Both the position numbers and the translations under genes were made by a program. A DNA stretch of 63,641 nucleotides, the filler included. It is 5 parts of 5 records of this genome, joined end to end, with 100 filler letters (N's around TTAATTAATTAA, not from the genome) between each part and the next. Parts side by side here need not be neighbours in the genome. Positions count along the whole stretch, not along the records: positions 30,688 to 52,731 come from SRR31156797_799; 4 more parts are not named here. The stretch is one strand, 5' to 3'. Each line of letters starts with the position of its first letter. Position 1 is the first letter of the stretch. Below, in pieces: positions 1 through 42,626 of the stretch. Under the pieces are notes generated by a model. It saw nothing but the letters and a program-made list of their open reading frames with translations, did no database searches and was not told the origin of the DNA.

Positions 1-5
1 CTTTT

Positions 6-36
6 ATGAGTTGATGGGATTTTGTATGTTTTGGTA
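6..36 (+). repeat. Direct repeat copy 1, probable promoter
   Basis: atgagttgatgggattttgtatgttt (26 bp) is identical at 6-31 and 1550-1575; each copy lies just upstream of a CDS. Confidence 0.8.
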
Positions 37-62
37 CAGAATTATTTATGCAGAGGTAGTCT

Positions 63-1547: not shown

Positions 1548-1549
1548 CA

Positions 1550-1580
1550 ATGAGTTGATGGGATTTTGTATGTTTGGGTA
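1550..1580 (+). repeat. Direct repeat copy 2, probable promoter
   Basis: 30 of 31 nt identical to 6-36; contains TATGTTTG (1570-1577), matching the Bacteroidota-type TAnnTTTG -7 element. Confidence 0.8.
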
Positions 1581-1608
1581 TTGAATTAATGAGGAACGAT
1601 TTACTGAT

Positions 1609-2106: not shown

Positions 2107-2424
2107 CACTAAAACGTGTGCTAACAGTGACCTTATCCCAATAATCATGATACTCAAGGGGGTTTGTATTCTCAAACCCAAACAATCACCGGTACCTTTA
2201 AACCCTGGGCATAGTGGAAAAATACCCTGGTACCAAGATCGATGAGAGAAGGGTTATTTTTTTTCGCTATAAAATCATGGTTCTCTTGCGAGTTTTGTGT
2301 GATTTTTGTTGGTATTGTGGTGAGTAAATTAGGGAATATTGTCACCTTATTGCCAGTTTATCTAGACCTAATTTTAACTTACCGACGTGCTGAATGGACA
2401 GAGATCAAGGAGAAAGTAGAAGTT

Positions 2425-4800: not shown

Positions 4801-5200
4801 GATTAAACTCCTTAGAAGTGCTTTATTTGACGAATTTTGTTTAGTATATATAATTACTTTAAAGATAATAATATATTATTTATCATACTTTTCACAGCTT
4901 TTTTTTATTTTTTTATTCTTAGAATTGCTGTATTAATGATAATTATACTAATATTATTTATAAGTAGGAGTACCAATTACATTTTATAGTAGATATGGGC
5001 AGATTAAATTATTTTAACAATTATTTGAAACAGCTATATATATCGAAAATAATTTGCATTCTTTGATCTCTTCTCTCGCGAGTTTTACTCTGTTTACAAT
5101 GGTAGCCTAGTCAGAAGTTTGAGTATTTGTGCCACTAATGAGTGAGTTAATAAACTATTATTAAGATGAAGGTCAAATTATCCTTTTTCAATTCATTTAA

Positions 5201-14292: not shown

Positions 14293-15329
14293 GGCTGGCT
14301 CCAATCAGTCCGAATGAAGTGGTAGGTTATATTAAGATATTCAATTGCGGATTCTGCAATATCTTTGGGATTCATTCGTTCCGGCAGGTCGGCCTGGGCG
14401 AGCACTAAAAGATTTTTTCGATTGGCCTCAATTAGATTTTGCTTAAATTGATGCTCGGTCATTCCTCCCGCCTGGCGCCGTGTTTGAAATCTTCGCCAGA
14501 CGTGGTTTATAAAAACCTTGCTGTCGCCGTAACGGCCGGTCGGCGAATTTTGGGCCGTCTCTAACACCGATTGCGCAAAAATATCCAAATCGAAATTTTC
14601 ACTTTCCAAACTTCTATTGGCTTCCCGTGTTCCTTTCAGTTGCAATGAAGCAGCTTCCCCGCTTTCCAGTAAACGCTCCAGCAAGGTCTGCCTTATGCCC
14701 GGGCCGCCCGGATTCCGGGCTCCGATCCATATGGCCGCCAATTGCTTGTATGCCGCCTCTTCGTTTAATTCCCTACTGGAAGACGTTTGCCGGTTAAACA
14801 ATAGTTTTCGGACAGCTCCCGCGCTGAACGGTTTATCCGAGTCAACTCCCAATACCTGCCAGGCCAAGGCGTTTTTAACCTGGGTTTCAGTGGGTAAGTC
14901 TTTGATTTTCAAATTACGATTTATTTTTACGGCCTGGGCGCGCAGCCGGGCCGTGTCTATTTTTCTTAAATCCTGGCTGGAATTAATTGAAACGCCCAAA
15001 GCCAGGGCCGGTAAATACTTTTCCTTCAAGGTTCGCCACGTAACAGATGCAGGATAATAGCTCCCGGTCAAATATGTCTTCACATGGTCAATTCCCTTGT
15101 CCGTGATGCCGTATACATTCTGCTTGTTCTTTAACTCGACTAGGCCTTCAGCGGCTAATGCTTCCAACAACTCCAAAATTATTTCAGACCAGCCGCCCAC
15201 AGGCATTTTATCCCTGGTAATGGTCAGCAAATCGCCGGCAATTGTTTTTAAAGGCGCCCCTTTATTTTTGGCCGGCCAAAGACGAACCAGAATCAGGTTT
15301 TTCACCGGCGCCATGTTTATATTATTCAT
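14289..15329 (-). CDS. Hypothetical protein with N-terminal winged-helix-like region
   Basis: LEALAAEGLVE...YGITDKG wing-like motif; GGAGGG RBS before ATG 15329. Confidence 0.65.
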   Translation of the reverse strand: MNNINMAPVKNLILVRLWPAKNKGAPLKTIAGDLLTITRDKMPVGGWSEIILELLEALAAEGLVELKNKQNVYGITDKGIDHVKTYLTGSYYPASVTWRTLKEKYLPALALGVSINSSQDLRKIDTARLRAQAVKINRNLKIKDLPTETQVKNALAWQVLGVDSDKPFSAGAVRKLLFNRQTSSSRELNEEAAYKQLAAIWIGARNPGGPGIRQTLLERLLESGEAASLQLKGTREANRSLESENFDLDIFAQSVLETAQNSPTGRYGDSKVFINHVWRRFQTRRQAGGMTEHQFKQNLIEANRKNLLVLAQADLPERMNPKDIAESAIEYLNITYHFIRTDWSQP

Positions 15330-15775: not shown

Positions 15776-18205
15776 GTGCATATGACTTCCAACGGAATGG
15801 ATAAGATTGCTGCCCTGAGGCAGGAGATTTCGAATCTCGAGAAGAGCTTATCGGAAAAGAAGAGAGAACTCTCCGGTCTTCTGGCCGAGGCCGGATCCGT
15901 AAGTCCGGTTTATCACAGAGGCGTCAACAGGCGCTCATCTCCGGAAGAGAAGATCGGGCTCTTCCGCTCTCTCTTCATCGGTCGAGACGATGTGTATGCC
16001 AGGCGTTTCGAATCCAGAGTCTCGGGGCAGTCGGGTTACCAGCCGGCCTGTCGGAATGAGTGGAAGGAAGGCGTCTGTGAGAAGCCGAAGGTAAAGTGCG
16101 CCTCCTGTCCCCACAGAGAGTTTCTGCCCCTCAGCGATGAAGTCATCTCCTTCCATCTCAAAGGGGAGGAGCCGCCGGTGAAGAGTTGGCGGCAACCGAA
16201 GCCTTTTGTCATGGGGATTTATCCCTTACTGCCGGATGAGAGTTGCCGCTTTCTGGCCGTTGACTTCGATAAGGAGAACTGGCAGCAGGATGTGTCGGCT
16301 TTTCTGGAGACCTGCGATGAGGAAGGTATTCCGGCGAGCCTCGAAAGGTCCCGTTCCGGCAACGGCGGTCATATATGGATCTTCTTCAGCGAGGCCGTTC
16401 CCGCGCATCAGGCGAGGAACCTGGGCTCCCTGCTACTTACAAAGTCCCTGGACCGCAGACCGGAAATAGGTCTGGATTCATTCGACCGATTCTTTCCCAA
16501 TCAGGACACAATGCCCAGGGGCGGTTTCGGAAACCTGATAGCTCTCCCTCTGCAGAAAAAGGTCAGGGACGAGAATTCAGTATTTATCGACAGGGATTTC
16601 CAGCCCTTTGAGGACCAGTGGGATTATCTGTCGTCCATCCGGACGATGAGCAGGAAGGATCTTGATATTTACATCGCAAGGGCGATGGGTAACCGAAACC
16701 CTTTCCATCCCGTATCCCATGATAAGGAGAATGGCACTCTCCCTTGGGAGAAAACTCCCAAGATGGATCTCCCTGTCATTGATACCCCTCTTCCCTCATC
16801 CATTGAGATCGTTCTCTCCAACCAGATCTTTCTGGATTCAACGGGACTACCTCCCGTTCTCAGGAACAGAATCCTGAGGCTGGCGTCCTTTCTAAATCCC
16901 GAATTCTATCAGGCCCAGGCCATGAGACTGCCGACCTGGAATAAGCCGAGGATACTCTACTGTTACGAGCAGAACGGTTCCTATATCGCCCTGCCTATCG
17001 GATGCCTCGATGACCTTAAAAAACTGCTGAAGCATTATGATATAAAACCTCAGATAGAAGATAAGCGGATCAAGGGGACGGAGATTTCCTATGAGTTCCA
17101 GGGAAAGTTAACAGAGGAACAAATGAAGGCGGCTAATATACTCTCCAGATACAACACGGGAGTGCTCTCTGCAACCACCGCCTTCGGCAAGACCGTTCTG
17201 GCCCTATGGCTTATCGCTCAGCGAGGCGTAAACACTCTGGTTCTCGTCCACCGGAAGCAGCTGATGGAACAGTGGGCCACAAGGGCTCAGCAGTTTCTGA
17301 ATATCCCAAAGAAGGAGATAGGACTTTTCGGGGGCGGACGAAAAAAACGTACGGGCATATTGGATATTGCGGTCATCCAAAGCGTCAGCCGGAAGGGCGA
17401 GGTGGTCGAATGGCTGGATGAGTACGGCCAGATCATCGTCGACGAATGCCATCATATCTCCGCCTTCTCCTTCGAGCAGGCGATCCGGCAGAGTCCGGCC
17501 TACTACAAGTTAGGACTCTCTGCCACACTGACACGCAAGGACGGCCAGCATCCCATCATCTTTATGAATCTGGGAGAGGTCCGGTATTCGGTCAGTGCCA
17601 GGAAGCAAGCAGCCGCCAGATCCTTCAGCCATAAGGTGATCCCCAGAGAAACTGCATTCAATATTGATTTCGCCGAGACCGCATCGGATCGGATTCAGGA
17701 TCTGTTTCGAATTCTGGCAGGCGACGAAAGCCGGAATGATTTTATTCTTTCAGATATCAACAGGGCGATTCAATCGCAGCGAAAGATACTGGTCATCACG
17801 GAGAGAAAGGAGCATCTGGAACAACTGGCGAAGAAGTTGGAAGCGTTGGCTGAGAATCTCTTTATCCTCCAGGGCGGTATGGGGAAGAAACAGATCAAGG
17901 CGGTGATGGAAGGCATCGCCCAGGTCACGGATGATCAGAGCATCGTGATCCTGGCAACCGGCCGCTACCTCGGGGAGGGATTCGATCTCCCCTTCCTGGA
18001 TACCCTGTTCCTTACCTTTCCCGTTTCCTGGAAGGGAACTCTGACCCAGTATGCCGGACGGCTTCACAGGGAATATCATGGAAAGGAAGAGGTTACCATC
18101 TACGATTACGTCGACCCGAATGTTCCCGTTCTGAGCAGGATGTTCCAGAAGCGCGTGAAGGGATACCGCTCCCTGGGTTACACGTTTGATGCTCCAGTGA
18201 AATGA
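15776..18205 (+). CDS. AEP primase-like (TOTE-type) domain fused to an SF2 DEAD/DEAH (ResIII-like) helicase
   Basis: LF.GR.DVYARR, FLAVDFD, ERSRSGNGGHIWIFF, DRFFPNQD..P.GGFGNLIALPLQ; ATTAFGKT, DECHH, LSAT, QYAGRLHR. Confidence 0.85.
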   Translation: MHMTSNGMDKIAALRQEISNLEKSLSEKKRELSGLLAEAGSVSPVYHRGVNRRSSPEEKIGLFRSLFIGRDDVYARRFESRVSGQSGYQPACRNEWKEGVCEKPKVKCASCPHREFLPLSDEVISFHLKGEEPPVKSWRQPKPFVMGIYPLLPDESCRFLAVDFDKENWQQDVSAFLETCDEEGIPASLERSRSGNGGHIWIFFSEAVPAHQARNLGSLLLTKSLDRRPEIGLDSFDRFFPNQDTMPRGGFGNLIALPLQKKVRDENSVFIDRDFQPFEDQWDYLSSIRTMSRKDLDIYIARAMGNRNPFHPVSHDKENGTLPWEKTPKMDLPVIDTPLPSSIEIVLSNQIFLDSTGLPPVLRNRILRLASFLNPEFYQAQAMRLPTWNKPRILYCYEQNGSYIALPIGCLDDLKKLLKHYDIKPQIEDKRIKGTEISYEFQGKLTEEQMKAANILSRYNTGVLSATTAFGKTVLALWLIAQRGVNTLVLVHRKQLMEQWATRAQQFLNIPKKEIGLFGGGRKKRTGILDIAVIQSVSRKGEVVEWLDEYGQIIVDECHHISAFSFEQAIRQSPAYYKLGLSATLTRKDGQHPIIFMNLGEVRYSVSARKQAAARSFSHKVIPRETAFNIDFAETASDRIQDLFRILAGDESRNDFILSDINRAIQSQRKILVITERKEHLEQLAKKLEALAENLFILQGGMGKKQIKAVMEGIAQVTDDQSIVILATGRYLGEGFDLPFLDTLFLTFPVSWKGTLTQYAGRLHREYHGKEEVTIYDYVDPNVPVLSRMFQKRVKGYRSLGYTFDAPVK

Positions 18206-18897: not shown

Positions 18898-20076
18898 CTA
18901 ACCGACCTTCGGAAAGGGCAGTATTTTCGTCTGAATCTTGCTGACATCGGAGAAGTCGCTGTGCTTGAAATGGGTGTAGTTATCGGTCATCTTATCCGAC
19001 TTGTGTCCGGTCAGTTTCTGGAGCTTGCTGTCGGCTATGTTGTTACTCCGCATCATGGTGTTGAAATAGTGACGCCAGCTGTGGAAGGAGTAGCCTTTCT
19101 CCTTCCTGGTTTTCTCATCGATGTCCAGTTTCCGGAGCGCCCGATCCAGGGACTTGCCCATGCTCCAGTGGGTCACGGGTTTCTTCTTGTCCTTTCCCAG
19201 GCAGAAGAGCATATCCTCGGGGTCTCCGTTGGAGAGCTTCCTGAGCATCGCTTCCAGGGATTCAGGTATGGGGATCTCCCGGTTCTCCTTGGTCTTTGTG
19301 GGAGTGAAGCCCTGTTTGTAGATGTACTGTTTCGTAACGGCGATATACCCGCCCTTCAGATCCTTGAGCTGTACACCGATGACCTCGCTCATCCTCATGC
19401 CTGTGCTGGCCGCCAGAAGGTTCCCCAGGTAATAGACCCTGTTTTCCCAAATCGTCAGCATCGTAGAATAGTCGAACAGCTTATTGACCGTCTCCTGATC
19501 AAAGACGCCCCTGACCTTGGATTTGTTCCGGAGATAGGGAACCTTCAGGGTCACATCCTCGGACAAGAGGTTCCGCCGTACCGCCTCGCTCAGCATGATG
19601 TGAAGGGTCTTCAAACAGCCGTTGATAGTCTTGTTGGCAAGGGGCCGTCCGGTCTTTTTACTGGTTATGGCCTGGAGTTTTCCGACCCAGTTTTCCACAT
19701 CGTAACGGGTTATGTCCTTCAGACGCATGCCGCCGAACCGAGGAAGTATATAGTTGTTGAGATGATGTATCTGGCTTCTCAGATAGTTCTGGGTGATGGA
19801 ACCGCTGCGTCTTCGATACCGGACGTATTCGCATTTTTCATCATCCCACCAGTTAACCGAATAATCAGAAAATAACATCCTTCCCGCTCTATTGGGGATC
19901 AGATCGTCGGCTTTATCCAGCTTCCGGCAGAAGGCGCGGGCGGCGGATTTCGTCGTTTGCCCGGTTGATAAGGCAGTGGTTCTCCGGCCTGATTCGTCGT
20001 AAGTCTGGTAATACCAGACGACTCTGCCGGTTCTCATTTTTCTCGGGAATACCGTGAAAGGCTCTCTGTATCTCAT
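18898..20076 (-). CDS. Tyrosine recombinase / phage-type integrase
   Basis: GMRMSE (R), TKTK (K), HSWRH, GHKS, NYTH (Y); N-terminal arm and SAM-like region. Confidence 0.92.
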   Translation of the reverse strand: MRYREPFTVFPRKMRTGRVVWYYQTYDESGRRTTALSTGQTTKSAARAFCRKLDKADDLIPNRAGRMLFSDYSVNWWDDEKCEYVRYRRRSGSITQNYLRSQIHHLNNYILPRFGGMRLKDITRYDVENWVGKLQAITSKKTGRPLANKTINGCLKTLHIMLSEAVRRNLLSEDVTLKVPYLRNKSKVRGVFDQETVNKLFDYSTMLTIWENRVYYLGNLLAASTGMRMSEVIGVQLKDLKGGYIAVTKQYIYKQGFTPTKTKENREIPIPESLEAMLRKLSNGDPEDMLFCLGKDKKKPVTHWSMGKSLDRALRKLDIDEKTRKEKGYSFHSWRHYFNTMMRSNNIADSKLQKLTGHKSDKMTDNYTHFKHSDFSDVSKIQTKILPFPKVG

Positions 20077-20286
20077 ATTCTCCACTCCATTGGATGCGCT
20101 CACACAAGTGCTGACACACCCTGATCGAAACGATGCAGAGAATATTTTATATTTCCTAACCTGTTATCCTGTATACAATAACACAAACACGATTTGTAAT
20201 CAATGATTATCTCTTATTACAAGGATGCCGGATTAGGGCTTGAGGAGGGCGCGCAGTGAATCGGTCTGAGACCGATGAGGGAAGCG

Positions 20287-30796: not shown

Positions 30797-31639
30797 AGGG
30801 CAACCTATGGTAAACAAGTGTTAAAGCAGCTATCCGAACAATTAACTCTGGAGTTTGGTAAGGGATTCGATGAAAGCAACCTTAAAAACATGCGCATCTT
30901 TTACCATGCCTTCCTAAAACGTGACGCACTGCGTCACGAATTAAGCTGGACACACTACCGCATCCTTTCCAGGGTTGAAAAGAAAAAAGATCGCATACAA
31001 TACATGCAACTTGCGGTGGGCGAAAACTGGAATACCCGCGAACTGGAAAGGAATATCCGCTCCGGGTACTTAGGCTGCATGCTGGAAATGCCGGAAAATG
31101 GCAATAAAAACACGACTCAGTCTTACATAAAAGACCCTTACATTTTTGAGTTCCTGGGGCTGAAACCTGATGCCCGGCATCAGGAAAGTACTATCGAGAC
31201 GGCATTAATTGATCATTTAAAAAATTTCCTGATGGAACTGGGAAAGGGATTTGCCTTTGTCGAGCGCCAACAACATGTTGTTACCGATACCTCCGATTTT
31301 TATATCGACCTGGTATTTTACCATTATCATTTAAAGTGTTTTGTGTTAATCGACCTAAAGGCCGACAAACTTAAGCATGAACATATCGGGCAACTGGATA
31401 TGTATGTGCGCATGTATGACGACCTAAAGCGCGGCGAAGATGACAACCCAACCATAGGCATTATCCTTTGCACAGAAAAAGATGAAACCATAGTAAAATA
31501 CAGTGTACTGGCAGAGAATAAAAAGCTGTTTGCCAGCAAATACCGCCTTTACCTGCCTGACGAAGAAGAATTAAAAGCGCTGATTGACAGGGACAGGAAA
31601 CGTTTGGAAAAGGAATTGTTTCCTGACCGCTCCAGGTAA
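30797..31639 (+). pseudogene. YhcG/DUF1016 PD-(D/E)XK nuclease, apparently missing its N-terminus
   Basis: RATYGKQVLKQLS...LSWTHY...KDPYIFEFL...ELGKGFAFV.RQ...IDL.FYH...GQLDMY...DNPTIGIILC. Confidence 0.7.
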
Positions 31640-32115: not shown

Positions 32116-32212
32116 GAGCACGAGGTTCATGATTTGTGGGTTTTCCACTACTTTTGCTATTAACGCGAATTGGAATACACAGCAATTTTACCAATTTAAA
32201 ACGGATTAAATT

Positions 32213-33082
32213 TTGACCAGAACAGCACATATATTCTACATTACAGTATTGTCGGCAATTGTAATCGTCTCTTTTGTGATACTAATCTACGTGGGCACTT
32301 CATACTACCAGGTACCATTGGAAGAAAGGTATTTTCACGACAGCCACCAGGCATACAAGCCCAGCGGTGTGATCGGGCACGGGCTTGGAATTTTCGGTTC
32401 ACTGGCTATGATTATTGGGGTGAGCATTTATATGGCCCGCAAGCGATTCCGTTCCCTGGCCCGCCTTGGCTTGTTGAAGCACTGGCTTGAATTTCACATT
32501 TTTCTTTGCACCCTCGGCCCTATGCTGGTTTTGTTTCATACTTCCTTCAAGTTCGGCGGTATTGTGGCCATTAGTTTCTGGAGTATGGTAGCTGTATTTT
32601 TAAGCGGGATTATCGGGCGGTTTATCTACATCCAGATTCCCCGTACCATCGAAGGGCGGGAGCTCAGCCTTGGGGAAGTACGCGAAATGAAAAAAGGAAT
32701 TGATGATATTTTAGAAACCAATCGCGACCTGAATGAAGAAAGCCGGAACTACATCCTGAATGCCATACTTGGCCAGGATGATCCGGGCCGGAAAAAAGGC
32801 ATTTTTTCCATTTTCAGTGATTATTTCAATGACCTTGGCAAGAGAAGTAAATTGAAATCAAAATTGAAAAATGCCGGGATAGCAAAAAAGGAAACCAAAA
32901 GGATACTGGGGCTGGTACGAAGTGAAATGTCGCTGAACAGGCGCATCAACCGGCTGAGCCTGATGCAGGAATTGTTCAGATACTGGCATGTGGCTCACCT
33001 GCCCTTTGCATTGGTCATGCTGATAATCATGCTGATACACATCGGGGTAACCATCACATTTGGCGCTCACTGGATCTTTTAA
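32213..33082 (+). CDS. Di-heme b (ferric-reductase-like) membrane protein
   Basis: Two TM His pairs, each 14 residues apart (EFHIF...LFHT and VAHLP...LIHIG). Confidence 0.7.
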   Translation: MTRTAHIFYITVLSAIVIVSFVILIYVGTSYYQVPLEERYFHDSHQAYKPSGVIGHGLGIFGSLAMIIGVSIYMARKRFRSLARLGLLKHWLEFHIFLCTLGPMLVLFHTSFKFGGIVAISFWSMVAVFLSGIIGRFIYIQIPRTIEGRELSLGEVREMKKGIDDILETNRDLNEESRNYILNAILGQDDPGRKKGIFSIFSDYFNDLGKRSKLKSKLKNAGIAKKETKRILGLVRSEMSLNRRINRLSLMQELFRYWHVAHLPFALVMLIIMLIHIGVTITFGAHWIF

Positions 33083-33085
33083 ACC

Positions 33086-34423
33086 ATGGAAGTACTCATC
33101 GAAGAAATATTAACCTATTCAGTTGTCATCCTCCTTTGCGCGGTTGTGGTTTTCATTTACCTGAGAAAACAGCGCAATATTTCCAGGAAAACCGAGGAAA
33201 AAATCAAACAGGCTAAGGAAGAAGGATTGTTTGAACCCGTATCGCTGCACCCGGTGGTAGATAAAAACAGTTGTATTAAAACCGGTGCCTGTATTACAGC
33301 ATGCCCTGAGAAAGACATCCTTGGTATCGTAAACGGGAAAGCTACCCCGGTGAATGCATCACGATGTGTAGGCCACGGTGCATGCTTCCATGCGTGCCCT
33401 ACAGAAGCCATCACACTTTGTATTGGCACAGAAAAGCGTGGCGTGGACCTGCCGCACGTAAACAAATATTTCGAAACGAATGTCCGGGGTATTTTTATTG
33501 CCGGTGAACTGGGTGGCATGGGCCTGATCAGGAATGCCGTTGAACAAGGCAGGCAGGCGGTGGAAAACATCACCAGGGTGGTGAAGGAAAAACATACCGC
33601 CGACTACGACCTGATCATCGTTGGAGCCGGGCCCGCAGGTATTGCAGGATCGCTCACCGCCAAAAAGAACAACCTGAAGTTTCTCACGTTGGAGCAGGAT
33701 TCACTGGGCGGAACAGTTTATACATTTCCACGATCAAAAATTGTTATGACTTCTGCAATGGAACTTCCCATGCACGGAAAAGTGAAAATGTATGAAACCA
33801 GCAAACCAGAATTGCTGGAACTCTGGGAAACAGTACTCCGTAAAAACGATATATCCATCATCGAAAACAATAAGGTAGAGGAGATTACTCCTGTAAACAG
33901 GCACTTCGAACTGAAAACCTCAACCGGCAAAACCTATTCTACCAAATGCGTCCTGGTTTCAATTGGCCGCAGAGGATCGCCACGAAAACTGGCCATCCCT
34001 GGTGAGCAATCCGTAAAAGTTGCCTACAGGCTGCTTGAACCCGAGGAGATCAGCGGTAAAAAGGTCATGGTAGTGGGTGGTGGAGATTCTGCCATCGAAT
34101 CGGCACTGATGCTGGCGGATCAAAATGAGGTGACCCTCTCGTACCGCAAGGATAAATTCAACCGGCTGAAGCCCAAAAACAAGGCAAAAATTGATGAAGC
34201 CATTGATTCCGGAAAGGTCAAAGTAATCTACAATTCAAACCTGGTAAAGATTGAAGAGCCTGCCGTTACCCTAAAGGTAGACGACAAGGAAGAATCACTG
34301 ATTTTGGAAAACGACCTGGTTTACATTTTTGCAGGCGGAGAATTGCCAACACAGTTCCTGAAAAATGCCGGCATCAACATCACCAAAAAATTTGGCGACG
34401 CCATTTTGAAACACGATAAATAG
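33086..34423 (+). CDS. Membrane-anchored 4Fe-4S ferredoxin / FAD-NAD(P)H oxidoreductase (TrxR/YpdA-like)
   Basis: N-terminal TM helix; CIKTGACITACP and CVGHGACFHACP; GAGPAG; GGGDSA. Confidence 0.85.
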   Translation: MEVLIEEILTYSVVILLCAVVVFIYLRKQRNISRKTEEKIKQAKEEGLFEPVSLHPVVDKNSCIKTGACITACPEKDILGIVNGKATPVNASRCVGHGACFHACPTEAITLCIGTEKRGVDLPHVNKYFETNVRGIFIAGELGGMGLIRNAVEQGRQAVENITRVVKEKHTADYDLIIVGAGPAGIAGSLTAKKNNLKFLTLEQDSLGGTVYTFPRSKIVMTSAMELPMHGKVKMYETSKPELLELWETVLRKNDISIIENNKVEEITPVNRHFELKTSTGKTYSTKCVLVSIGRRGSPRKLAIPGEQSVKVAYRLLEPEEISGKKVMVVGGGDSAIESALMLADQNEVTLSYRKDKFNRLKPKNKAKIDEAIDSGKVKVIYNSNLVKIEEPAVTLKVDDKEESLILENDLVYIFAGGELPTQFLKNAGINITKKFGDAILKHDK

Positions 34424-34443
34424 CACACAATCATAATTGATCA

Positions 34444-36036
34444 ATGAAACTGAAAAGCCTGAAAATACTACCAATACTAATTTTTCTCCTGATATGGATA
34501 ACTCCGTTGCCGGGACAGATTTCTCCCGGGGAGTTGGCCCAGGCTCATGCCCATCTTGAAGGGCTTTCAAATTGCACAAAATGCCACACCCTTGGCGAAA
34601 AAGTTACCGATGAAAAATGCCTCGACTGCCACACCGCCATTCAATTTCTGATCGCTAACGACCGTGGATACCATGTTTCGAAGGAAGTTAAAGGCAGGCA
34701 CTGCTATGAATGCCACAACGACCATCACGGCAGAAAATTTCAGATCATCCGCTTCGATCAGGATACCTTCAATCATGACCTGACCGGTTATCGGCTGGAG
34801 GGAGCACATGCAGACAAAGATTGCAAATCTTGTCACAAAAAGGATTACATCGACAACTCGGAGCTACTCAAAAAAGATTTCACCTGGCTGGGCCTTGAGC
34901 AAACCTGCCTCACCTGCCATGAAGATTACCACCAGGGCACCCTGGCAGCAAGTTGTATGGACTGCCACAATTACGATCATTTCAGCCCGGCACCGGGATT
35001 TGATCATGCAAATACTAATTTTCAGTTAAGGGGAAAACATGCCGAAACCGAATGCGTGGAATGCCATGAAATTACTGATCGGAATGGCAGGCAATTCCAG
35101 GTTTTCAGTGGTGTTGCTCACCAAAGTTGTACAAACTGTCACGAGGATGTCCACAACAACAAGTTCGGACAAAATTGCACCTTATGTCACAACGAAACCT
35201 CGTTTCACCAGATTAATGAACTGACTAACATCAATCACGACCAAACGGATTTTCCGCTGGAAGGCAAACATGAAACGGTGGATTGCCGGGATTGCCACGA
35301 AACAGGTTATCTTGAACCCGTTCCCCATAATCAGTGTCTCGATTGCCACGAAGATTTTCATGGAGGTCAGTTTATCAGGGACGGCAAAAACACAGATTGT
35401 TCTGCCTGTCACAGTGTAGAGAATTTCCAGGGTTCTTCATTTACCATCGACCGCCACAGCAAAACACGGTTTCCGCTGGAAGGTGCGCACATGGCAACAC
35501 CCTGCTTTGTTTGTCACAAGCCCGAAAGCGAATGGATATTCAGGGATATCGGCGTGGAATGTATAGACTGCCATGACAATATCCACGAAAGTTACATCAG
35601 TGAAAAATATTACCCCGACAATCAATGTACGGCCTGCCATGAAGTTTCGCGGTGGCATGATGTAAGTTTCGATCATGATAAAACGGCATTCAGGCTTGAA
35701 GGGGCCCATGCAGTTCAAACATGCCGCGACTGCCATTTTGAAGACAGCAAAGGCCGGGAAGTGCAGCGTTTTAAAAGCCTGGATACACATTGTACCGAAT
35801 GCCATCAGGACATCCATTATAACCAGTTTGATGAGGGCGGAACAACTGAATGCCTGGGTTGTCATGGTTATAACAACTGGACAGCTGAAAAATTTGACCA
35901 CAACAATACCCGGTTTAAACTCGAAGGCAAACACAAGGGCGTAGCCTGCGATAAATGCCATTTCGAAAAGAGAATCGATAACAAAATATTCATCCAATTT
36001 AAAATGGAGCGTTTCAAATGCGAAGACTGTCATTAA
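34444..36036 (+). CDS. Multiheme cytochrome c, 20 CxxCH
   Basis: Signal peptide; 20 CxxCH counted by hand; recurring F.H..T.F.L.G.H tri-heme units. Confidence 0.92.
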   Translation: MKLKSLKILPILIFLLIWITPLPGQISPGELAQAHAHLEGLSNCTKCHTLGEKVTDEKCLDCHTAIQFLIANDRGYHVSKEVKGRHCYECHNDHHGRKFQIIRFDQDTFNHDLTGYRLEGAHADKDCKSCHKKDYIDNSELLKKDFTWLGLEQTCLTCHEDYHQGTLAASCMDCHNYDHFSPAPGFDHANTNFQLRGKHAETECVECHEITDRNGRQFQVFSGVAHQSCTNCHEDVHNNKFGQNCTLCHNETSFHQINELTNINHDQTDFPLEGKHETVDCRDCHETGYLEPVPHNQCLDCHEDFHGGQFIRDGKNTDCSACHSVENFQGSSFTIDRHSKTRFPLEGAHMATPCFVCHKPESEWIFRDIGVECIDCHDNIHESYISEKYYPDNQCTACHEVSRWHDVSFDHDKTAFRLEGAHAVQTCRDCHFEDSKGREVQRFKSLDTHCTECHQDIHYNQFDEGGTTECLGCHGYNNWTAEKFDHNNTRFKLEGKHKGVACDKCHFEKRIDNKIFIQFKMERFKCEDCH

Positions 36037-39000
36037 TGGCCCTTATTGGAGTTGCCGTTGTTTTTGCGGCATTTCAGATTACTACCGATTCCCCGCACGG
36101 AGATGAACTCGACATCGACTGTGGCGTGTGCCATACTCCCGAAGGCTGGAAACTGGACAAGGAGCACTATTCTTTCGATCATGGTACTACAAAATTTCCA
36201 CTTACAGGACAACATCATTCTTTTGATTGTAGAAAATGTCACGAATCGCTCATATTCTCAGAAGCTGAAACCGAATGTGTTTCCTGCCATACCGACATTC
36301 ATGAGCAAACGGTTGGTATGGAATGCGGCCGTTGCCACACTTCACAATCGTGGTTGGTGCACAACATCACCGAAATTCACCAGTTAAGCCGTTTTCCGCT
36401 AACAGGCCCGCACGTTACAGCCACCTGTAACGACTGTCACGAATCAGCCAGCTCACTCAGGTTCGAGCCACTGGGTGTGGAATGTATCGATTGTCATGAG
36501 GATGATTACCTTTCGGCCACGAGCCCAAACCATGTTGAAAATGATTATTCAACCAATTGCCTGGATTGCCATGCCATGTATGCTTTTACATGGACAGGTG
36601 CAGGCATCGATCATAGCTTTTTCCCGCTCACACTTGGCCATGACCTGGCAGATTGTTACCAGTGCCACACGGAGGGAACCGACTATGGAAATATTTCCAG
36701 TGATTGTGTGTCCTGCCATGAGGAGGACTTTAACACTACTGCCAATCCCGATCACCAGGAAGCCGGTTTCACAACCGAATGTACCGACTGCCACACCACA
36801 AATCCGGGATGGAATCCTGCCAGTTTCTTTGAGCATGACGTACAGTTTTTCCCAGTTTATTCTGGCGAGCACAATGGTGAATGGAATACCTGTACCGACT
36901 GCCATACTAACCCTGCAGATTATACAATTTTCAGTTGTACTGTTTGCCACGAGCACAACCAGGCTGATATGGATGAGGAGCACAATGAAGTGGGCGGCTA
37001 CGTTTACGAAAGCATGGCTTGCCTCGAATGCCACCCCACAGGCAGCGGCGATGAGGTTTTCGATCACAATGCAACTGCTTTTCCACTCACCGGCGCCCAT
37101 ATCGGTTCAGACTGTATGAACTGCCACTCTGCCGGATTTGAAGGAACACCAACGGAATGTTTTTCATGTCATGAAGCCGAATTCATCGAATCCATGAACC
37201 CGGCACATGACGATCTTGGGCTTTCGCAGGATTGTGGTGAATGTCACTCAACCCTGCCCGGATGGGAACCTGCCACTTTCGAAATTCATTACCAGTTTTA
37301 TGCGCTCATAGGAGCACATGCCAACATTGCCAATGATTGCGCGGCCTGTCATGAGGGCAATTACATCGAAACACCCAATAGCTGTGTGGGATGCCACCAG
37401 GAAGAATATAACCAGACATCAGATCCACCACACGAAACTTCCGGTTTTTCTACCGAATGCCTCGACTGTCATACACAAAGTGAATGGGAGCCTTCCACTT
37501 TCGACCACGACGGACAATATTTCCCGATATACAGCGGAGAACACAACGGAGAGTGGAATGCCTGCATGGATTGCCATTCGGATCCCTCTAATTTCGAAAT
37601 CTTCACCTGTACCGACTGCCATGAGCACAACCAGCCCGATATGGATGAAGAGCATGAAGGCGTTGGAGGATATATTTATGAATCCTCAGCCTGCTTCGAA
37701 TGTCACCCCACCGGTGAATCTGCAGGTTCTTTTAACCACAACAATTCTGCATTTCCACTAACCGGCGCTCATATTACCACAACCTGTGTTGAATGTCACG
37801 AAAGTGGATACCAGGGGACTCCAACAGATTGTTTTGCATGTCATGAACCGGATTACAACGGGTCGGTAAACCCCAGCCATCAGGAACTCGGACTGGAAAC
37901 GGCCTGTGAGGATTGCCATACCACAAATCCCGGATGGGAGCCTGCTACCTTCGAAATCCATAACGATTACTATGAACTCGTTGGTGCGCATGCCGGCATC
38001 TCGAACAGTTGCATCGACTGCCACAATGGCGAATACAACAACACACCGAATACATGTTTCGGGTGTCATGAAGAAGATTATAACCAGACAAACGACCCAC
38101 CGCACTCATCAGCAGGATTCCCGACAGAATGCCTGGAATGCCACACGCAAGAGGTCTGGGAACCATCCACTTTTGACCATGATGGCATGTATTTCCCGAT
38201 TTACAGTGGTGAACACAACAGGGAGTGGAACTCCTGCATAGAATGTCATACGGAGCCAAACAATTTCATGGTGTTCAGTTGTATTGATTGTCATGAACAC
38301 AATCAGCCCGACATGGATGAGGAACATCAGGGTGTTGGCGGCTACCTCTACGAATCATCAGCATGTTTTGAGTGCCATCCTACGGGTGAATCTTCCGGTG
38401 CATTCAACCACAACAGTTCCAACTTTCCGCTTACCGGAGCCCATGCTACCACAACTTGTCTTGAATGTCACGAAAGCGGATACCAGAACACACCTACCGA
38501 TTGCTTTGCCTGTCATGAACCGGATTACAACCAGGCATCAAACCCTAACCACATCAACCTGGGGCTGGGTAACGACTGTGAGGAATGCCACAGCGCAGAA
38601 CCGGGCTGGTCGCCGGCAACTTTCGACATCCACAATGATTATTATGTGCTGCAGGGTGCGCATGTTACCATTGCCAATAACTGCACCGAATGTCATGGTG
38701 GGAATTACAACAACACACCAAACACCTGTTTCGGGTGCCACGAAGAGGAGTACAACCAGGCCAATGATCCACCGCACCAGCAGGCAAATTTCCCCGTCGA
38801 ATGTGAGCTTTGCCACAGCCAGAATGTATGGGAGCCCTCCACTTTCGATCATGATGCACTCTATTTCCCCATCTACAGCGGGGAGCACAACCGTGAGTGG
38901 AATACCTGCTCCGATTGCCATACCAACCCTGGAAACTATGCTGTTTTCAGTTGTTTCCAATGCCACAGCCAGCCTGAAATGGATGATGAACACGATGATG

Positions 39001-39107
39001 TTTCCGGGTATGAATACAACAGTATTGCATGCCTCGAATGTCACCCCAACGGCAATCAACCATTCCATATTGAATCGAATCCAATCCGGGACTTCATAAA
39101 AGAATAG
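36018..39107 (+). CDS. Giant acidic multiheme cytochrome c, 40 CxxCH
   Basis: Signal peptide; 40 CxxCH counted by hand; three 224-aa nine-heme repeats. Confidence 0.92.
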   Translation: MRRLSLMALIGVAVVFAAFQITTDSPHGDELDIDCGVCHTPEGWKLDKEHYSFDHGTTKFPLTGQHHSFDCRKCHESLIFSEAETECVSCHTDIHEQTVGMECGRCHTSQSWLVHNITEIHQLSRFPLTGPHVTATCNDCHESASSLRFEPLGVECIDCHEDDYLSATSPNHVENDYSTNCLDCHAMYAFTWTGAGIDHSFFPLTLGHDLADCYQCHTEGTDYGNISSDCVSCHEEDFNTTANPDHQEAGFTTECTDCHTTNPGWNPASFFEHDVQFFPVYSGEHNGEWNTCTDCHTNPADYTIFSCTVCHEHNQADMDEEHNEVGGYVYESMACLECHPTGSGDEVFDHNATAFPLTGAHIGSDCMNCHSAGFEGTPTECFSCHEAEFIESMNPAHDDLGLSQDCGECHSTLPGWEPATFEIHYQFYALIGAHANIANDCAACHEGNYIETPNSCVGCHQEEYNQTSDPPHETSGFSTECLDCHTQSEWEPSTFDHDGQYFPIYSGEHNGEWNACMDCHSDPSNFEIFTCTDCHEHNQPDMDEEHEGVGGYIYESSACFECHPTGESAGSFNHNNSAFPLTGAHITTTCVECHESGYQGTPTDCFACHEPDYNGSVNPSHQELGLETACEDCHTTNPGWEPATFEIHNDYYELVGAHAGISNSCIDCHNGEYNNTPNTCFGCHEEDYNQTNDPPHSSAGFPTECLECHTQEVWEPSTFDHDGMYFPIYSGEHNREWNSCIECHTEPNNFMVFSCIDCHEHNQPDMDEEHQGVGGYLYESSACFECHPTGESSGAFNHNSSNFPLTGAHATTTCLECHESGYQNTPTDCFACHEPDYNQASNPNHINLGLGNDCEECHSAEPGWSPATFDIHNDYYVLQGAHVTIANNCTECHGGNYNNTPNTCFGCHEEEYNQANDPPHQQANFPVECELCHSQNVWEPSTFDHDALYFPIYSGEHNREWNTCSDCHTNPGNYAVFSCFQCHSQPEMDDEHDDVSGYEYNSIACLECHPNGNQPFHIESNPIRDFIKE

Positions 39108-39111
39108 GGCC

Positions 39112-40722
39112 ATGAAAACATTTATACTGATACTAACCGGAGTGTTGATTTGTTTTTTTGCTTTTGCGCAGGATACCGGGGAGGATTTACGCACAGGAAA
39201 AGTTACCTACCTGAGTTCGCAGAATGTGTATGTGGGATTTGACAAAACCGAAGGGATTGAGCAGGGCGATACACTTTATCTATCGAAAGATGGGATTACA
39301 ATCCCGGCACTCGTTGTAACCAACCTGTCATCCATTTCCTGTGTTTGCCAGCCATTGCCCGGTGTGGATATCCAGCTGGATGACACCGTTCTATTTGAAC
39401 CTCGTGTAGTAAAACCCCCTGAGCCGGAAAGTACTGTGCAGGGGTCCCCCGAAACTGATACGATACCTATTGTAAGTGAAGAAGAAATTACAACAATTAC
39501 AGCGGATTCTGAAACGCAGGAACGTATATCCGGCAGGGTTTCGGTATCTTCTTATGCCGACCTCTCGGATGTCGAAACACGCGATAATTTTAAAATGCGG
39601 TATATCCTGTCGTTAAGCGCTGCCAATATCCGCGAATCCAATCTGTCGTTTGAGAGCTACATTGCATTCAGCCACCGCAGCAACGAATGGAGCGAAATCA
39701 AAGATAACATATACAACGGACTGAAAATTTACAACTTGTCGGTAAATTACAAATTCAGTGAGGATACCAGGCTTTGGTTTGGCCGCCGCATAAACCCCAG
39801 GGTATCAAGTATGGGTGCAATCGACGGGCTGCAACTGGAACATAAGCTGAACAATTTTACCCTCGGTGCCATAGCAGGATCAAGGCCTGATTGGTCCGAT
39901 TACAGTTTCAACTTCAAACTATTCCAGGCCGGAGTATATGCCAGCCATGAATACGCAACTTCAACCCTGAATATGATGAATACCATCGCTGTGGTTGACC
40001 AGGAAAACAACTGGAACACCGACCGGCGCTTCATCTATCTGCAACATACCAACCGCCTTTTTAAAAAAGTATACTTCTTTGGTTCAGGCGAAATAGACTT
40101 GTACGAGAAAGTAGACGGGATACAGAAAAATACCTTCAGCCTCACCAACCTGTACCTTCGTTTACGATATCGTGTGATGCGAAGCCTTTCTTTTTCATTG
40201 TCGTATAGTGCGCGAAACAACCTCATCCTTTACGAAACCTACAAAAGCTATATAGAACGGTTGTTGGAAACCGAAACCCTACAGGGATTTGTTGCGTTAG
40301 TAAACGTGAAGCCCGTCCGCAACATCAACATTGGGTTACGTGCCGGTTACCGCGACCGGGGTGGCGACATCAGGCCATCGAAAAATCTTTACGGATATGT
40401 GAATTTTGCCCGTTTGCCTTTCTGGGATCTGTCGGCCACAGCCACCGCGATTTTCCTGGAAACCAGTTATCTGAACAGCAAAGTATTTGGGCTGCGGCTT
40501 TCACGCGATCTGATCCCGGGAAAACTATTCGGTTCGCTGGGCTACCGAAACATCAATTACGATTATCTGAACCAGGATTACTCCATTGCACAAAACTGTA
40601 TCGAATTCAATCTGAACCTGAAAACCATCTGGAAAATTTATGCCTCACTCAACTACGAAAGCACCTTCGACAAAGACATGAGTTACTACCGGGTTTATGT
40701 GAACCTTTCCAAACGGTTTTAA
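39112..40722 (+). CDS. Putative outer-membrane beta-barrel protein with N-terminal soluble domain
   Basis: Signal peptide, Pro/Thr/Glu linker, alternating amphipathic strands, ends YRVYVNLSKRF. Confidence 0.7.
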   Translation: MKTFILILTGVLICFFAFAQDTGEDLRTGKVTYLSSQNVYVGFDKTEGIEQGDTLYLSKDGITIPALVVTNLSSISCVCQPLPGVDIQLDDTVLFEPRVVKPPEPESTVQGSPETDTIPIVSEEEITTITADSETQERISGRVSVSSYADLSDVETRDNFKMRYILSLSAANIRESNLSFESYIAFSHRSNEWSEIKDNIYNGLKIYNLSVNYKFSEDTRLWFGRRINPRVSSMGAIDGLQLEHKLNNFTLGAIAGSRPDWSDYSFNFKLFQAGVYASHEYATSTLNMMNTIAVVDQENNWNTDRRFIYLQHTNRLFKKVYFFGSGEIDLYEKVDGIQKNTFSLTNLYLRLRYRVMRSLSFSLSYSARNNLILYETYKSYIERLLETETLQGFVALVNVKPVRNINIGLRAGYRDRGGDIRPSKNLYGYVNFARLPFWDLSATATAIFLETSYLNSKVFGLRLSRDLIPGKLFGSLGYRNINYDYLNQDYSIAQNCIEFNLNLKTIWKIYASLNYESTFDKDMSYYRVYVNLSKRF

Positions 40723-40953
40723 ATGTGAATAGATTATTGGCGGAATTGATATATCAGGCGCATTTGTGATTTGAAATCGAATGGCAACAAAGGATCATTT
40801 TGTTGTTGATGGCTCTCATGATATGCGATATTTCCACCTCATTATCAACCCACTAAGCTGACACCTCTTTGACTCACTGTTGCATTTGCCATTGATTTGA
40901 ACTATATTTGTTGGGCATTCCTTAAATTCAATCATATAAAAGCACACAAAGAG

Positions 40954-41760
40954 ATGAAAAAACTATTACTGATTTTAAGTATTGCCTTTATGCCGCAACT
41001 GATATCGGCCCAGTATATTCAGGCCGGTGATTCTCTCAGCCCCGGGGTTATTTTTGTTGATATACCGGATGAGTGGGTTTCATCTTCATTTCCTTCCGGA
41101 ACCGAGGCGTTCAACCTGGATATAAATGGTGATGGCAGCAATGAAATTACGTTTTCGTCGTATAAAAATTCCACCATGTCATCCACAATACAGGTTACCG
41201 GGTGCCAACCGGCAACTGGCTCTTCAACGGAAATTATTGTAACCCCAGACAACGACACATGGGTGGCATCCATTCCCGAAGAAACCTGGATAGGATCTCA
41301 AAGCAACTGGGGTGAAGGAGGTACCTTAAGTGGTGAATATGCCATTAATTATGAGGTAACCCTGACAGGTGTTTTTAGTGAAGGTTTTATTGGATTTAAG
41401 ACCATGATCAACGGACAGCTTACCCATGGCTGGGTGCAGGCTTTTGCATCGCCGGGAAGTGTAGCCATATTTTCGTACGCCTATCAGGATGTTACTACCG
41501 GAATAAACCAGATTTCAACCCAGGAAATAGCGATATACCCAAACCCTGTCGACCAGGATTTGTGGGTCACCATTCCCGAAAACCAAGGGAATCGCCTTAA
41601 ATACTGCATTTACGACCTTACCGGCGCGGAACTTGGCTCAGGCCGGATATCATCAAACAATGGAACTGTAAATTGCCAGCACCTCGCTCCTGGCATGTAT
41701 TACATCAGGATCACCAACCACGATGAAGTGATTTCAGCACACAAATTCATCAAGCAATAA
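40954..41760 (+). CDS. T9SS type A sorting domain protein
   Basis: Signal peptide; IYPNP...YDLTG...L.PGMYYIRI...KFIKQ. Confidence 0.85.
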   Translation: MKKLLLILSIAFMPQLISAQYIQAGDSLSPGVIFVDIPDEWVSSSFPSGTEAFNLDINGDGSNEITFSSYKNSTMSSTIQVTGCQPATGSSTEIIVTPDNDTWVASIPEETWIGSQSNWGEGGTLSGEYAINYEVTLTGVFSEGFIGFKTMINGQLTHGWVQAFASPGSVAIFSYAYQDVTTGINQISTQEIAIYPNPVDQDLWVTIPENQGNRLKYCIYDLTGAELGSGRISSNNGTVNCQHLAPGMYYIRITNHDEVISAHKFIKQ

Positions 41761-41831: not shown

Positions 41832-42626
41832 TTACAGCGCTTTGGATTCATGCCATGTGGCACCTTCCAAAATGGCATCATACTTATATCCGGCTCCAAA
41901 ATCCTTGTCCACACTCAGGGTGCCTGTAAAAGTCACCTCATCTCCAAGGGAGAAGTTAACCGGTTCAAAGGTTGTGATGGTCAGATCGTAATGCTTTCCG
42001 CTTTTGGTCCCGTCCTGGATATGAATCCAGCTGCGGTTCATGATGTTCTGGCTGATTTTAACCACCTCTCCTTTTACAGTAATTGTTTTTCCACCCAGCG
42101 ATTCAAGGTTTCCGTAGATGCTGCCAATGGTTTGGCCCTCGCCTGCAGGTTCTACCTCGATGTGATCATGCATGCGTGTTTTGGTATGGGCGTGAGGGTC
42201 GGATTTTTTAAAGTCAGATGATCCGGCATGTATGGTTTCGGTCTCTGAAAAATTCTGGATAAACATTACCGAATCGAACGTCCGGTTGAGTTGTTTACTC
42301 TCAAAATCCTTCATCATAAGCGCATCTGAAAAGGCATAGGTTTTTCCGATCTCAAGAGGCCTTGCTGTGATCGCCGCCCAAAATTGCTTACCATTTTCAT
42401 CCAGTTTCACATAAGTGTACGTTCCGGCATCTATGGCTTCGAGCGCCACCGCCATACGGTAATTTTTTCCCGGTGAAACCGCATTCCCGGATGAAGTTTT
42501 GTTATCATCTGAAGATAGTTTGTCCATTACCTTATCCAGTGCCTGATAATCCTGAGATGAATTTTCAGAACCATTGTTACAGGATACCAACAATACGAGT
42601 GCAAAAAACCAAATATATTTAAACAT
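41832..42626 (-). CDS. Lipoprotein with two OB-fold-like domains (NrfJ-like)
   Basis: Lipobox LVSC; GTYTYV..WAA, FESKQL.RTF, V.GEVVK...IM.R.WIHIQDG, DFGAGY. Confidence 0.6.
   Translation of the reverse strand: MFKYIWFFALVLLVSCNNGSENSSQDYQALDKVMDKLSSDDNKTSSGNAVSPGKNYRMAVALEAIDAGTYTYVKLDENGKQFWAAITARPLEIGKTYAFSDALMMKDFESKQLNRTFDSVMFIQNFSETETIHAGSSDFKKSDPHAHTKTRMHDHIEVEPAGEGQTIGSIYGNLESLGGKTITVKGEVVKISQNIMNRSWIHIQDGTKSGKHYDLTITTFEPVNFSLGDEVTFTGTLSVDKDFGAGYKYDAILEGATWHESKAL

Follow-up and report, generated by a model that had tools for sequence, protein, structure and literature searches.

Where do electrons enter a multiheme wire that spans the entire cell envelope? To our knowledge, every characterised conduit (Mtr, Pcc/Ext; CymA, ImcH, CbcL) starts at quinol, and the locus analysed here raises the question whether some of these wires may start at cytoplasmic NAD(P)H. 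The locus is a cassette of five co-directional open reading frames (ORFs; g1–g5) on the + strand, with spacings of 3, 20, -19 and 4 nt, at positions 32213..40722 of a 63,641-nt stretch of DNA (hereafter, the window). The window consists of 5 parts of 5 records joined by 100-N filler; adjacent parts may not be genomic neighbours, and positions 30,688-52,731 come from SRR31156797_799. An initial annotation of this DNA, made from the letters alone, described five packed genes with these spacings and a total of 60 c-type hemes, and both the ORF coordinates and the count of CxxCH motifs (20 + 40) agree with that description; its functional interpretation receives partial support. The analysis is computational throughout and combines sequence comparison, profile searches and predicted structures.

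We propose, with about even confidence, that g1–g5 form a trans-envelope electron conduit of the PCC3 type that is equipped with its own cytoplasmic entry enzyme. This proposal draws its direct support from the gene set itself, the heme motifs, the barrel fold of the g5 model, the motifs of g1 and g2, and the co-inheritance of the five parts. In the proposed scheme, g2, anchored by a single helix and with its bulk in the cytoplasm, would oxidise NAD(P)H at FAD and pass the electrons through two Fe-S clusters, one of them with an invariant His ligand, to g1, with which it would be in contact; g1 would move the electrons across the inner membrane, independently of quinone, on two stacked b hemes (H95/H262 and H109/H276); the 20-heme g3 would conduct them across the periplasm; and the 40-heme g4, located in or at the 22-strand barrel of g5, would deliver them to the cell surface. 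The acceptors at the surface would likely be metal oxides, humics, conductive particles or partner cells. The broader claim, namely, that PCC3-type wires are NOX-like and quinone-independent, such that electrons of cytoplasmic NAD(P)H pass via a dedicated Fe-S flavoprotein into a di-heme membrane protein and from there to the surface, is more tentative, and we consider it possible rather than probable.

A PCC3-type gene cluster with a constant fifth component

The PCC3 clusters defined by He, Barco, Emerson and Roden (2017; PMC5566968) combine genes for a porin, a large variable cytochrome, a cytochrome with ~21 hemes and a membrane protein of ~300 amino acids (aa); the latter has five helices, of which the fourth bears the motif SGXXG and the third and fifth the motif WX3HX13H. 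Given that g1 and 42 homologs carry all three motifs, the cluster in the window is assigned to the PCC3 type: by the published motif and gene descriptions, rather than by sequence alignment, it is a Bacteroidota member of this predicted kind. The likeness extends from g1, a five-helix protein of about the expected size (289 aa, with the three motifs in 42/42 homologs), to the rest of the cassette. The barrel gene g5 starts 4 nt after the multiheme cytochrome gene g4; g3, with 20 hemes, resembles the “periplasmic” multiheme cytochrome (MHC) of the published clusters (~21 hemes, 21-27 in Gallionellaceae); and g4, with 40 hemes, internal repeats and 10-67 hemes in its orthologs, resembles the “extracellular MHC” by composition, such that the fixed length of g3 versus the variability of g4 follows the published pattern of heme numbers. 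In a preprint of Hoover et al. (2023; PMC9900912), the cytochrome with 21-27 hemes is described as possibly spanning the periplasm, and the extracellular one is given 10-35 hemes.

There are also differences. The published cluster, as described in the texts available, has four genes and no flavoprotein, whereas here g2 is a constant fifth member; the published porins have up to 42 predicted transmembrane (TM) regions whereas the g5 barrel has 22 strands; and the published model runs inward, to the quinone pool. PCC3 clusters are described in Alpha-, Beta- and Gammaproteobacteria; the main text of PMC5566968 does not contain the word “Bacteroidetes”. Related observations in this phylum include a cluster of hypothetical multiheme cytochromes and a beta-barrel in an anode-enriched Bacteroidetes metagenome-assembled genome (MAG), reported in 2021 (PMC8258643), and a Lentimicrobium porin cluster with 61 + 20 hemes, reported in 2026 in an organism that was recovered only from conductive-carbon incubations (PMC13013709), a field hint in favour of the conduit. 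With the PCC3 clusters and the Lentimicrobium cluster already reported, the novelty that the initial annotation attributed to a one-operon wire in such a lineage was overstated. What appears to be new is the constant fifth component, the flavoprotein, which is not described in the portion of the PCC3 literature found here and which moves the proposed point of entry away from quinol and to NAD(P)H. A full-text literature search retrieved no passage on a flavoprotein partner; the supplementary gene lists of PMC5566968 and PMC13013709 may bear on this point.

Table 1. Genes of the cassette, with positions in the window
Gene	Position	Strand	Product and features
g1	32213..33082	+	289 aa, TTG start; inner-membrane protein, “IMP” class of PCC3/PCC4 clusters; candidate di-heme b carrier
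g2	33086..34423	+	445 aa; membrane-anchored Fe-S flavoprotein
g3	34444..36036	+	530 aa; 20-heme c-type cytochrome, Sec signal peptide
g4	36018..39107	+	1029 aa; 40-heme c-type cytochrome, Sec signal peptide
g5	39112..40722	+	536 aa; outer-membrane protein, signal peptide, predicted barrel

The Fe-S flavoprotein

The g2 protein contains an N-terminal TM helix (residues ~8-26), a K/R-rich stretch, a two-cluster ferredoxin domain (55-112), and FAD and NAD(P) domains (~120-445). Because the K/R-rich stretch follows the TM helix, the bulk of the protein is predicted to be cytoplasmic. A Pfam search identifies Pyr_redox_3 (PF13738) with a score of 159.3 bits against a cut-off of 30, and Fer4_10 with 38.7 bits. 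The closest solved chains are those of the NADPH-dependent enzymes Bdr/YpdA, 7a76 (E 1.6e-24) and 7a7b (E 8.5e-23), and the ferredoxin-NADP reductases of the thioredoxin reductase (TrxR) type, 3ab1 and 3lzw, are also among the nearest solved relatives. The glycines of the two dinucleotide-binding motifs, GxGxxG (GAGPAG/GSGPAG) and GGGDxx (GGGDSA), are retained in all 25 aligned orthologs, and the second of these motifs is followed by S/A-Y-R in 24 of the 25. Judged by the Pfam score together with both glycine motifs, g2 is a TrxR-like flavoprotein with two dinucleotide-binding domains.

The Fe-S ligands C63, C69, C73, C94, H97, C100 and C104 are kept in 25/25 orthologs. The second ligand position of the first Fe-S motif is occupied by Thr or Ser in the subgroup to which the window protein belongs and by Cys in the other subgroup; in the second motif, this position is His throughout the 25 orthologs. 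The flavin part contains no conserved CxxC, or any conserved cysteine at all, among the same 25 sequences, and g2 is therefore not a disulfide reductase. Input of electrons from NAD(P)H via g2 is plausible. Two more specific assignments were tried and rejected: g2 scores 162 against the cut-off of 339.9 of the YpdA equivalog model TIGR04018, and 93.7 against the cut-off of 343.45 of the thioredoxin reductase model TIGR01292, with no redox-active CxxC in the latter case. A segment of g2 immediately preceding GxGxxG (residues 126-158) aligns weakly with residues 282-313 of 7a76 (conditional E 0.02), which comprise the C-terminal FAD-binding segment of Bdr; the flavoprotein fold of g2 might be circularly permuted relative to Bdr, as this alignment hints.

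The inner-membrane protein

The g1 protein has five predicted TM helices and a cytoplasmic helical insert of ~110 residues (145-255); in the AlphaFold2 model (pLDDT 72.3), the long hydrophobic helices span residues 3-33, 53-78, 88-110, 117-141 and 225-287. The TTG start codon coincides in the alignment with residue 1 of 41 homologs. By the positive-inside rule, the K/R-rich loop 73-90 and the insert would place the N-terminus inside and the C-terminus outside. Each of the 42 aligned homologs has WX3HX13H twice (positions 91 and 258 of g1) and also SGXXG (position 131), and the invariant positions of this alignment include W91, H95, H109, S131, G132, G135, W258, H262 and H276. The label “di-heme b” in the initial annotation is a reading of these invariant histidines, according to which g1 would bind two b hemes; the score of g1 for DUF4405 falls under the Pfam cut-off (see below).

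The multiheme cytochromes and the barrel

The CxxCH motif occurs exactly 20 times in g3 and exactly 40 times in g4, far beyond chance. No CxxxCH or CxxxxCH motifs are present in either protein, every cysteine (40 in g3 and 80 in g4) sits inside a CxxCH, and the 49 histidines of g3 and 87 of g4 are sufficient for bis-His ligation throughout. A Pfam search with g3 yields Cytochrome_C7 and c3 matches, and the HmcA signal is weak (21.9 bits vs a cut-off of 400). The heme number of the g3 orthologs is nearly fixed (20 in 37/43 loci, 19 in two and 23 in three, with one gene split), compared to 10-67 hemes in the orthologs of g4.

The g4 protein matches the Pfam model of MtrC/MtrF domain II/IV with 56.5 bits against a cut-off of 30, i.e., it contains pentaheme units like those of these domains. 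In relatives, stand-alone cytochromes with 9-13 hemes are homologous to its N-terminal part (~7-346; 55% identity for a 13-heme one), and the small cytochromes that adjoin the barrel gene in relatives match the same residues 7-346. Three nine-heme repeats of 224 aa (292-515, 516-739 and 740-963) are mutually 61-75% identical at the protein level and 64-73% at the DNA level; given these values, the repeats are not an artefact of assembly. The composition of g4 is highly acidic (172 D+E vs 14 K+R), and the median fraction of Lys+Arg is 6.55% in g4-like proteins vs 13.8% in g3-like proteins. The 20-heme chain of MtrCAB is ~185 angstroms long; on this scale, g3 would be about as long as the periplasm is wide and g4 about twice as long as g3.

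In g3, g4 and g5 alike, the hydrophobic core of a Sec-type signal peptide ends just before a Gln. Such a Gln after the core would fit the pyroglutamate “Q-rule” of the signal peptidase I substrates of Bacteroidota. None of the three proteins has a lipobox cysteine in position or a type IX secretion system (T9SS) sorting domain. The signal peptide of g3 points to a periplasmic location.

In the AlphaFold2 model of g5 (mean pLDDT 82.8), a small beta domain (27-95) is connected by a disordered linker (100-132) to a barrel of 22 strands (138-535). A Foldseek search with the barrel retrieves outer-membrane barrels, with E 2e-9 to FimD and OccK. Structural comparison with VIA identifies FyuA (Z 18.1, root-mean-square deviation (rmsd) 5.2, 344 aligned residues) and the FimD pore (Z 18.1, rmsd 4.2, 333 aligned); the top ranks are held by the 22-strand barrels of TonB-dependent transporters and the 24-strand usher pore. 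Thus, at the level of predicted structure, the last gene of the cassette encodes a barrel, as the initial annotation had surmised. Barrels of such a size normally require a plug; the g5 barrel sequence itself contains no plug domain, and g4 might be accommodated in the barrel. No Pfam family (E <= 0.01) or NCBIfam family is detected in g5. MtrB is not among the 50 barrel matches listed in the VIA comparison, an absence that does not exclude likeness. The search for g5 homologs identifies 1021 at E <= 0.001 among 8000 scored candidates; those that are named are all “hypothetical” and come from Bacteroidales or Bacteroidetes MAGs.

Conservation of the five components

Examination of related loci reveals that the five genes travel together. 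In the first set of seven loci, two of which are cut short, g1–g5 are found in this order in all five that include the upstream flank, among them an uncultured Melioribacteraceae. All five components are present in 19 of 20 wider loci, and the remaining one, which is cut at a contig start, is without g1 only. Among a further 19 genomes (20 stretches), 15 possess all five, in the form of 14 intact loci and one cassette split over two contigs; two loci in this set are cut by contig ends, and locus L073 holds only a broken g1. In this set, the five components are present even where the barrel is only 19-24% identical. Two gene orders are observed, g1-g2-g3-g4-g5, as in the window, and g1-g3-g4-g5-g2, the latter often with an extra 9-10-heme cytochrome gene just before the barrel gene. 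Both orders keep the five parts, and the persistence of an intact set through rearrangement argues that g1–g5 function as a unit; the premise of the initial annotation that the five genes are conserved together is upheld across many genomes.

Searches at E <= 1e-10 in 401 sampled genomes of the phylum detect g5 in 35 and g1 in 44. All 35 genomes with g5 also encode g1, and most of the nine “g1-only” genomes hold a barrel too diverged for the search. The g1 profile detects 3243 clusters (50% identity) at E <= 0.001. Clustering of the ORFs from 45 loci places g2 in 42 of them and yields only one further recurrent gene, which encodes a membrane-anchored TPR protein of ~200 aa and is present in 22/45 loci, between g1 and the next gene (e.g., L039:7060-7671), and absent from the window. 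This protein matches the TPR domain of CcmH/CycH with 27.9-30.5 bits, under the cut-off of 42, and may be a cytochrome maturation or assembly helper. No cytochrome maturation genes are present within the window. The genomes of five out of five relatives encode System II heme maturation (PF01578); because the same search is positive in 9 of 14 control genomes, this is a weak test. The maturation genes which the initial annotation proposed to look for are found in the relatives but not within the window.

Plasmid-borne cassettes and flavoprotein partners of distant g1 homologs

A full cassette is encoded on plasmid pEMTOL02 of the cultured bacterium Emticicia oligotrophica DSM 17448, with ccsA (System II) directly upstream. 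The identities to g1–g5 of the window are 50.5, 61.5, 40.5, 41.7 and 32.5%, respectively, and the two cytochromes have 23 and 40 hemes. The five products are annotated as hypothetical, NAD(P)-binding domain-containing protein, cytochrome c3 family (twice) and hypothetical; here, then, is a homologous cluster under generic annotation of the kind that the initial annotation had anticipated.

More distant homologs of g1, short at 242-253 aa (22-26% identity, E 4e-10 to 3e-4) and carrying SGXXG as well as HX13H on two helices, are encoded on plasmids of Methylophaga, Alteromonas, Spirosoma and Acetobacter (L091-L094). Among the plasmid records searched, the proteobacterial matches to g1 are all of this short, distant kind. 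In 4/4 of these plasmids, the gene is located directly between a gene annotated as a 2Fe-2S or FAD-binding oxidoreductase (before) and a gene for a 7-heme cytochrome (after). In Methylophaga, the upstream gene encodes a protein with the FAD_binding_6, NAD_binding_1 and Fer2 domains, that is, an NAD(P)H flavoprotein of the FNR type, with a fold unrelated to that of g2. The presence of two unrelated NAD(P)H-type Fe-S flavoproteins beside members of the g1 family suggests that g1 has a pyridine-nucleotide dehydrogenase as its cytoplasmic partner and that electrons usually flow outward; occupying the same place in the two contexts, these flavoproteins provide the best evidence for this reading. 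Three of the four modules with short g1 homologs lie among copper/heavy-metal resistance genes, and the Alteromonas module adjoins hydrogenase genes.

Counterevidence and alternative readings

Several observations weigh against the proposed conduit and are best discussed along with the alternatives on which they bear. The assignment of g1 to DUF4405 (PF14358) was rejected: the match has 21.7 bits against the cut-off of 26.7 and covers the last helix only. Matches to DUF4405 appear in 30 of the 42 homologs at E <= 0.1 (best E 0.00025), with g1 itself under the cut-off, and an hhalign comparison of g1 with two true DUF4405 proteins gives a probability of 1.3%. A Foldseek search with the g1 model finds no PDB match under E 0.9, and in a wide VIA search the best Z is 9.2, inside the noise of helical bundles. 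No fusion of g1 and g2 scored among 3189 longer candidates, which is weak evidence, and the sole chimeric g1 representative, of 418 aa, resembles a deletion product.

Furthermore, He et al. propose that the PCC3/PCC4 membrane protein, which they liken to a di-heme ferric-reductase domain, is a quinone-active cytochrome b (PMC5566968), and exchange with quinone at g1 would make g2 dispensable for the main path. Under this alternative, g1 would be a quinol dehydrogenase or quinone reductase that acts on the menaquinone pool, and g2 would have an accessory role in redox poising, repair or regulation. Such an arrangement would match CymA, ImcH and CbcL, all of which start at quinol, and the four-gene descriptions of proteobacterial PCC3, which list no flavoprotein in the parts available. 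However, it sits poorly with the retention of g2 in 42/45 loci and through the rearrangement of the cassette, and with the unrelated NAD(P)H flavoprotein next to the distant g1 homologs. No quinone-site motif was identified, in the course of an analysis that included no dedicated search for one. Altogether, we regard the quinone-linked function of g1 as distinctly improbable.

The outer half of the proposed conduit also presents difficulties. With neither a lipoprotein signal nor a T9SS domain, g4 lacks an obvious route to the surface in Bacteroidota; it may instead be largely periplasmic and expose no more than its tip, through the barrel. Exposure of the tip alone has been suggested for pcc clusters of two genes without an outer cytochrome (PMC4245776). 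In one locus (L072; G133:C1:1101000-1120000), only g1-g3-g2 are present, with no barrel or second cytochrome within ~13 kb downstream, which suggests that the inner-membrane and periplasmic half can work alone. These facts bear on the possibility that the cassette encodes an envelope reductase that is driven by NAD(P)H, has no part in respiration or fermentation balance and keeps a large periplasmic or surface heme pool reduced; the targets could be Cu, Cr, Se, Te, oxygen species or Fe(III) for uptake, and the barrel would be mainly a substrate channel or an anchor. In addition to L072, where the barrel is dispensed with, this reading is favoured by the location of the short g1 modules near genes for a multicopper oxidase, CopB, a P-type ATPase and a heavy-metal two-component system, and by the plasmid location of the cassette in Emticicia. 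Nevertheless, nearly all genomes that have g1 also retain the barrel and the long second cytochrome, 60 hemes and a 22-strand barrel exceed the needs of a soluble-substrate reductase, and there are no metal-resistance genes near the cassette within the window. A dedicated envelope reductase therefore appears rather improbable.

The direction of the flow is a separate issue. An outward electron sink has no obvious use in E. oligotrophica, an aerobe, and this carrier, together with the barrel-less locus L072, cautions against regarding the cassette as an anaerobic electron sink alone. Both PCC3 clusters of Sideroxydans ES-1 are down-regulated on Fe(II), and they have no known function (PMC8788666); in strain CL21, PCC3 clusters are expressed above the mean (preprint 10.1101/2025.02.27.639646). 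The cassette could instead take up electrons from Fe(II), Mn(II), minerals or a cathode and convey them to quinone or, via g2, to NAD(P)+. Multiheme chains are, in principle, reversible, as is established for Mtr/Mto, and the presence of the cassette on a plasmid of an aerobe speaks for uptake, as does the discovery of PCC3 in Fe(II) oxidisers, where the proposed model has it bring electrons in to the quinone pool (PMC5566968; PMC9900912). The reverse flow encounters the problem that reduction of NAD(P)+ (~-320 mV) by Fe(II) is uphill and the cassette includes no energy-coupling subunit; the down-regulation in Sideroxydans ES-1 speaks against uptake as well, and so do the FNR-like partners of the short g1 homologs, enzymes of a type that as a rule passes on electrons taken from NAD(P)H. 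Hence we consider uptake unlikely.

Comparison with other electron-transfer systems

The proposed conduit can be compared with several known systems. As in the MtrCAB, MtoAB and PioAB clusters of Shewanella, Sideroxydans and Rhodopseudomonas, a multiheme cytochrome gene lies directly upstream of the barrel gene; the pentaheme units of g4, detected above the cut-off, are shared with MtrC/MtrF, and some relatives have a separate cytochrome of MtrA size, with 9-10 hemes, beside the barrel gene. In contrast to MtrB, g5 has no MtrB_PioB Pfam match and 22 strands, compared to 26 in MtrB; against the DmsE/MtrA model TIGR03508 (cut-off 192.2), g4 scores 49.6 bits and g3 27.9. Unlike the Mtr systems, the cluster in the window encodes no lipoprotein outer cytochrome, and the proposed input does not proceed via quinol dehydrogenases of the CymA type.

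On the cytoplasmic side, the proposed path resembles that of NOX, FRE and STEAP, and of MsrQ with Fre, where electrons pass from cytoplasmic NAD(P)H to a flavin and then outward over two bis-His b hemes bound by helices 3 and 5; the HX13H spacing of g1 is common to NOX, FRE and STEAP. At variance with these proteins, the flavoprotein g2 is a separate, TrxR-like protein with Fe-S clusters rather than an FNR-like one, and the proposed acceptor of g1 is a chain of c-type cytochromes instead of O2, an Fe(III) chelate or MsrP. There is no Pfam match to PF01794 (Ferric_reduct) in g1, and one distant member of the g1 family reaches 20.6 bits for this model against the cut-off of 28. The comparison of STEAP1 with the g1 model (Z 7.7, rmsd 6.8, 163 aligned, rank 35) is within noise.

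The Tmc and Hmc complexes of sulfate reducers link the periplasmic and cytoplasmic redox pools; the genes for their multiheme cytochrome c in the periplasm, their cytochrome b in the membrane and their Fe-S protein in the cytoplasm occur together. They differ from the cassette in having a NarI-type b subunit and an HdrD-like Fe-S protein, with no flavin/NAD(P) domain and no outer-membrane barrel.

Genomic surroundings

The gene directly upstream of the cassette (30818-31639) encodes a YhcG/DUF1016 PDDEXK nuclease; as the match to the N-terminal domain begins only at profile position 49, this gene may lack its 5' end. The sequence TACTTTTG at 32149-32156, 57 nt upstream of the g1 start, is a candidate -7 promoter element of the Bacteroides type (TAnnTTTG). 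Scans of the window for sigma-70 promoters (27 sites vs 18.2 expected; the promoters of Bacteroidota are of another type) and for terminators (14 terminator-like sites vs 12.0 expected) are uninformative.

Just downstream of the barrel gene, positions 40897-41760 encode a protein of 287 aa that carries a C-terminal sorting domain of the T9SS. It was considered as a member of the cluster and rejected, as none of the 45 related loci contains a homolog. It is followed, on the opposite strand, by a gene for a probable lipoprotein of 264 aa (41832-42626) that has a His-rich stretch, belongs to no family and has no homolog beside the cassette in relatives.

Elsewhere in the window, genes for a HerA/DUF87-like ATPase (11125-14304, - strand), a TOTE conflict-system primase fused to a helicase (15776-18205, + strand; PF22548, 324 bits) and a phage-type integrase (18898-20103, - strand) likely make up a mobile defence island. 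The first 6000 nt (positions 1-6000) have a GC content of 27-32%, compared to ~45-53% over most of the window, and contain genes for a T9SS-sorted protein (63-1547) and a 791-aa ORF without a Pfam family (2425-4800, - strand); this segment may be foreign DNA.

Implications

The point of entry into PCC3 wires has been a matter of prediction since 2017, and the constant NAD(P)H-type flavoprotein offers a concrete answer. If the proposed conduit is real, it would account for the way in which non-respiring, fermentative Bacteroidota and Ignavibacteria shed electrons to minerals, humics, conductive particles or partners, with consequences for the cycling of iron and manganese, for anaerobic digesters and for bioelectrochemical systems. 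E. oligotrophica DSM 17448 is a cultured carrier in which this reading is testable. Should the wires prove to be independent of quinone, about a tenth of the sampled Bacteroidota species, fermenters included, would own an electron sink that is contained in a single cassette and is mobile on plasmids, and this cassette would represent the machinery of “fermentative” metal reduction and particle-dependent growth.

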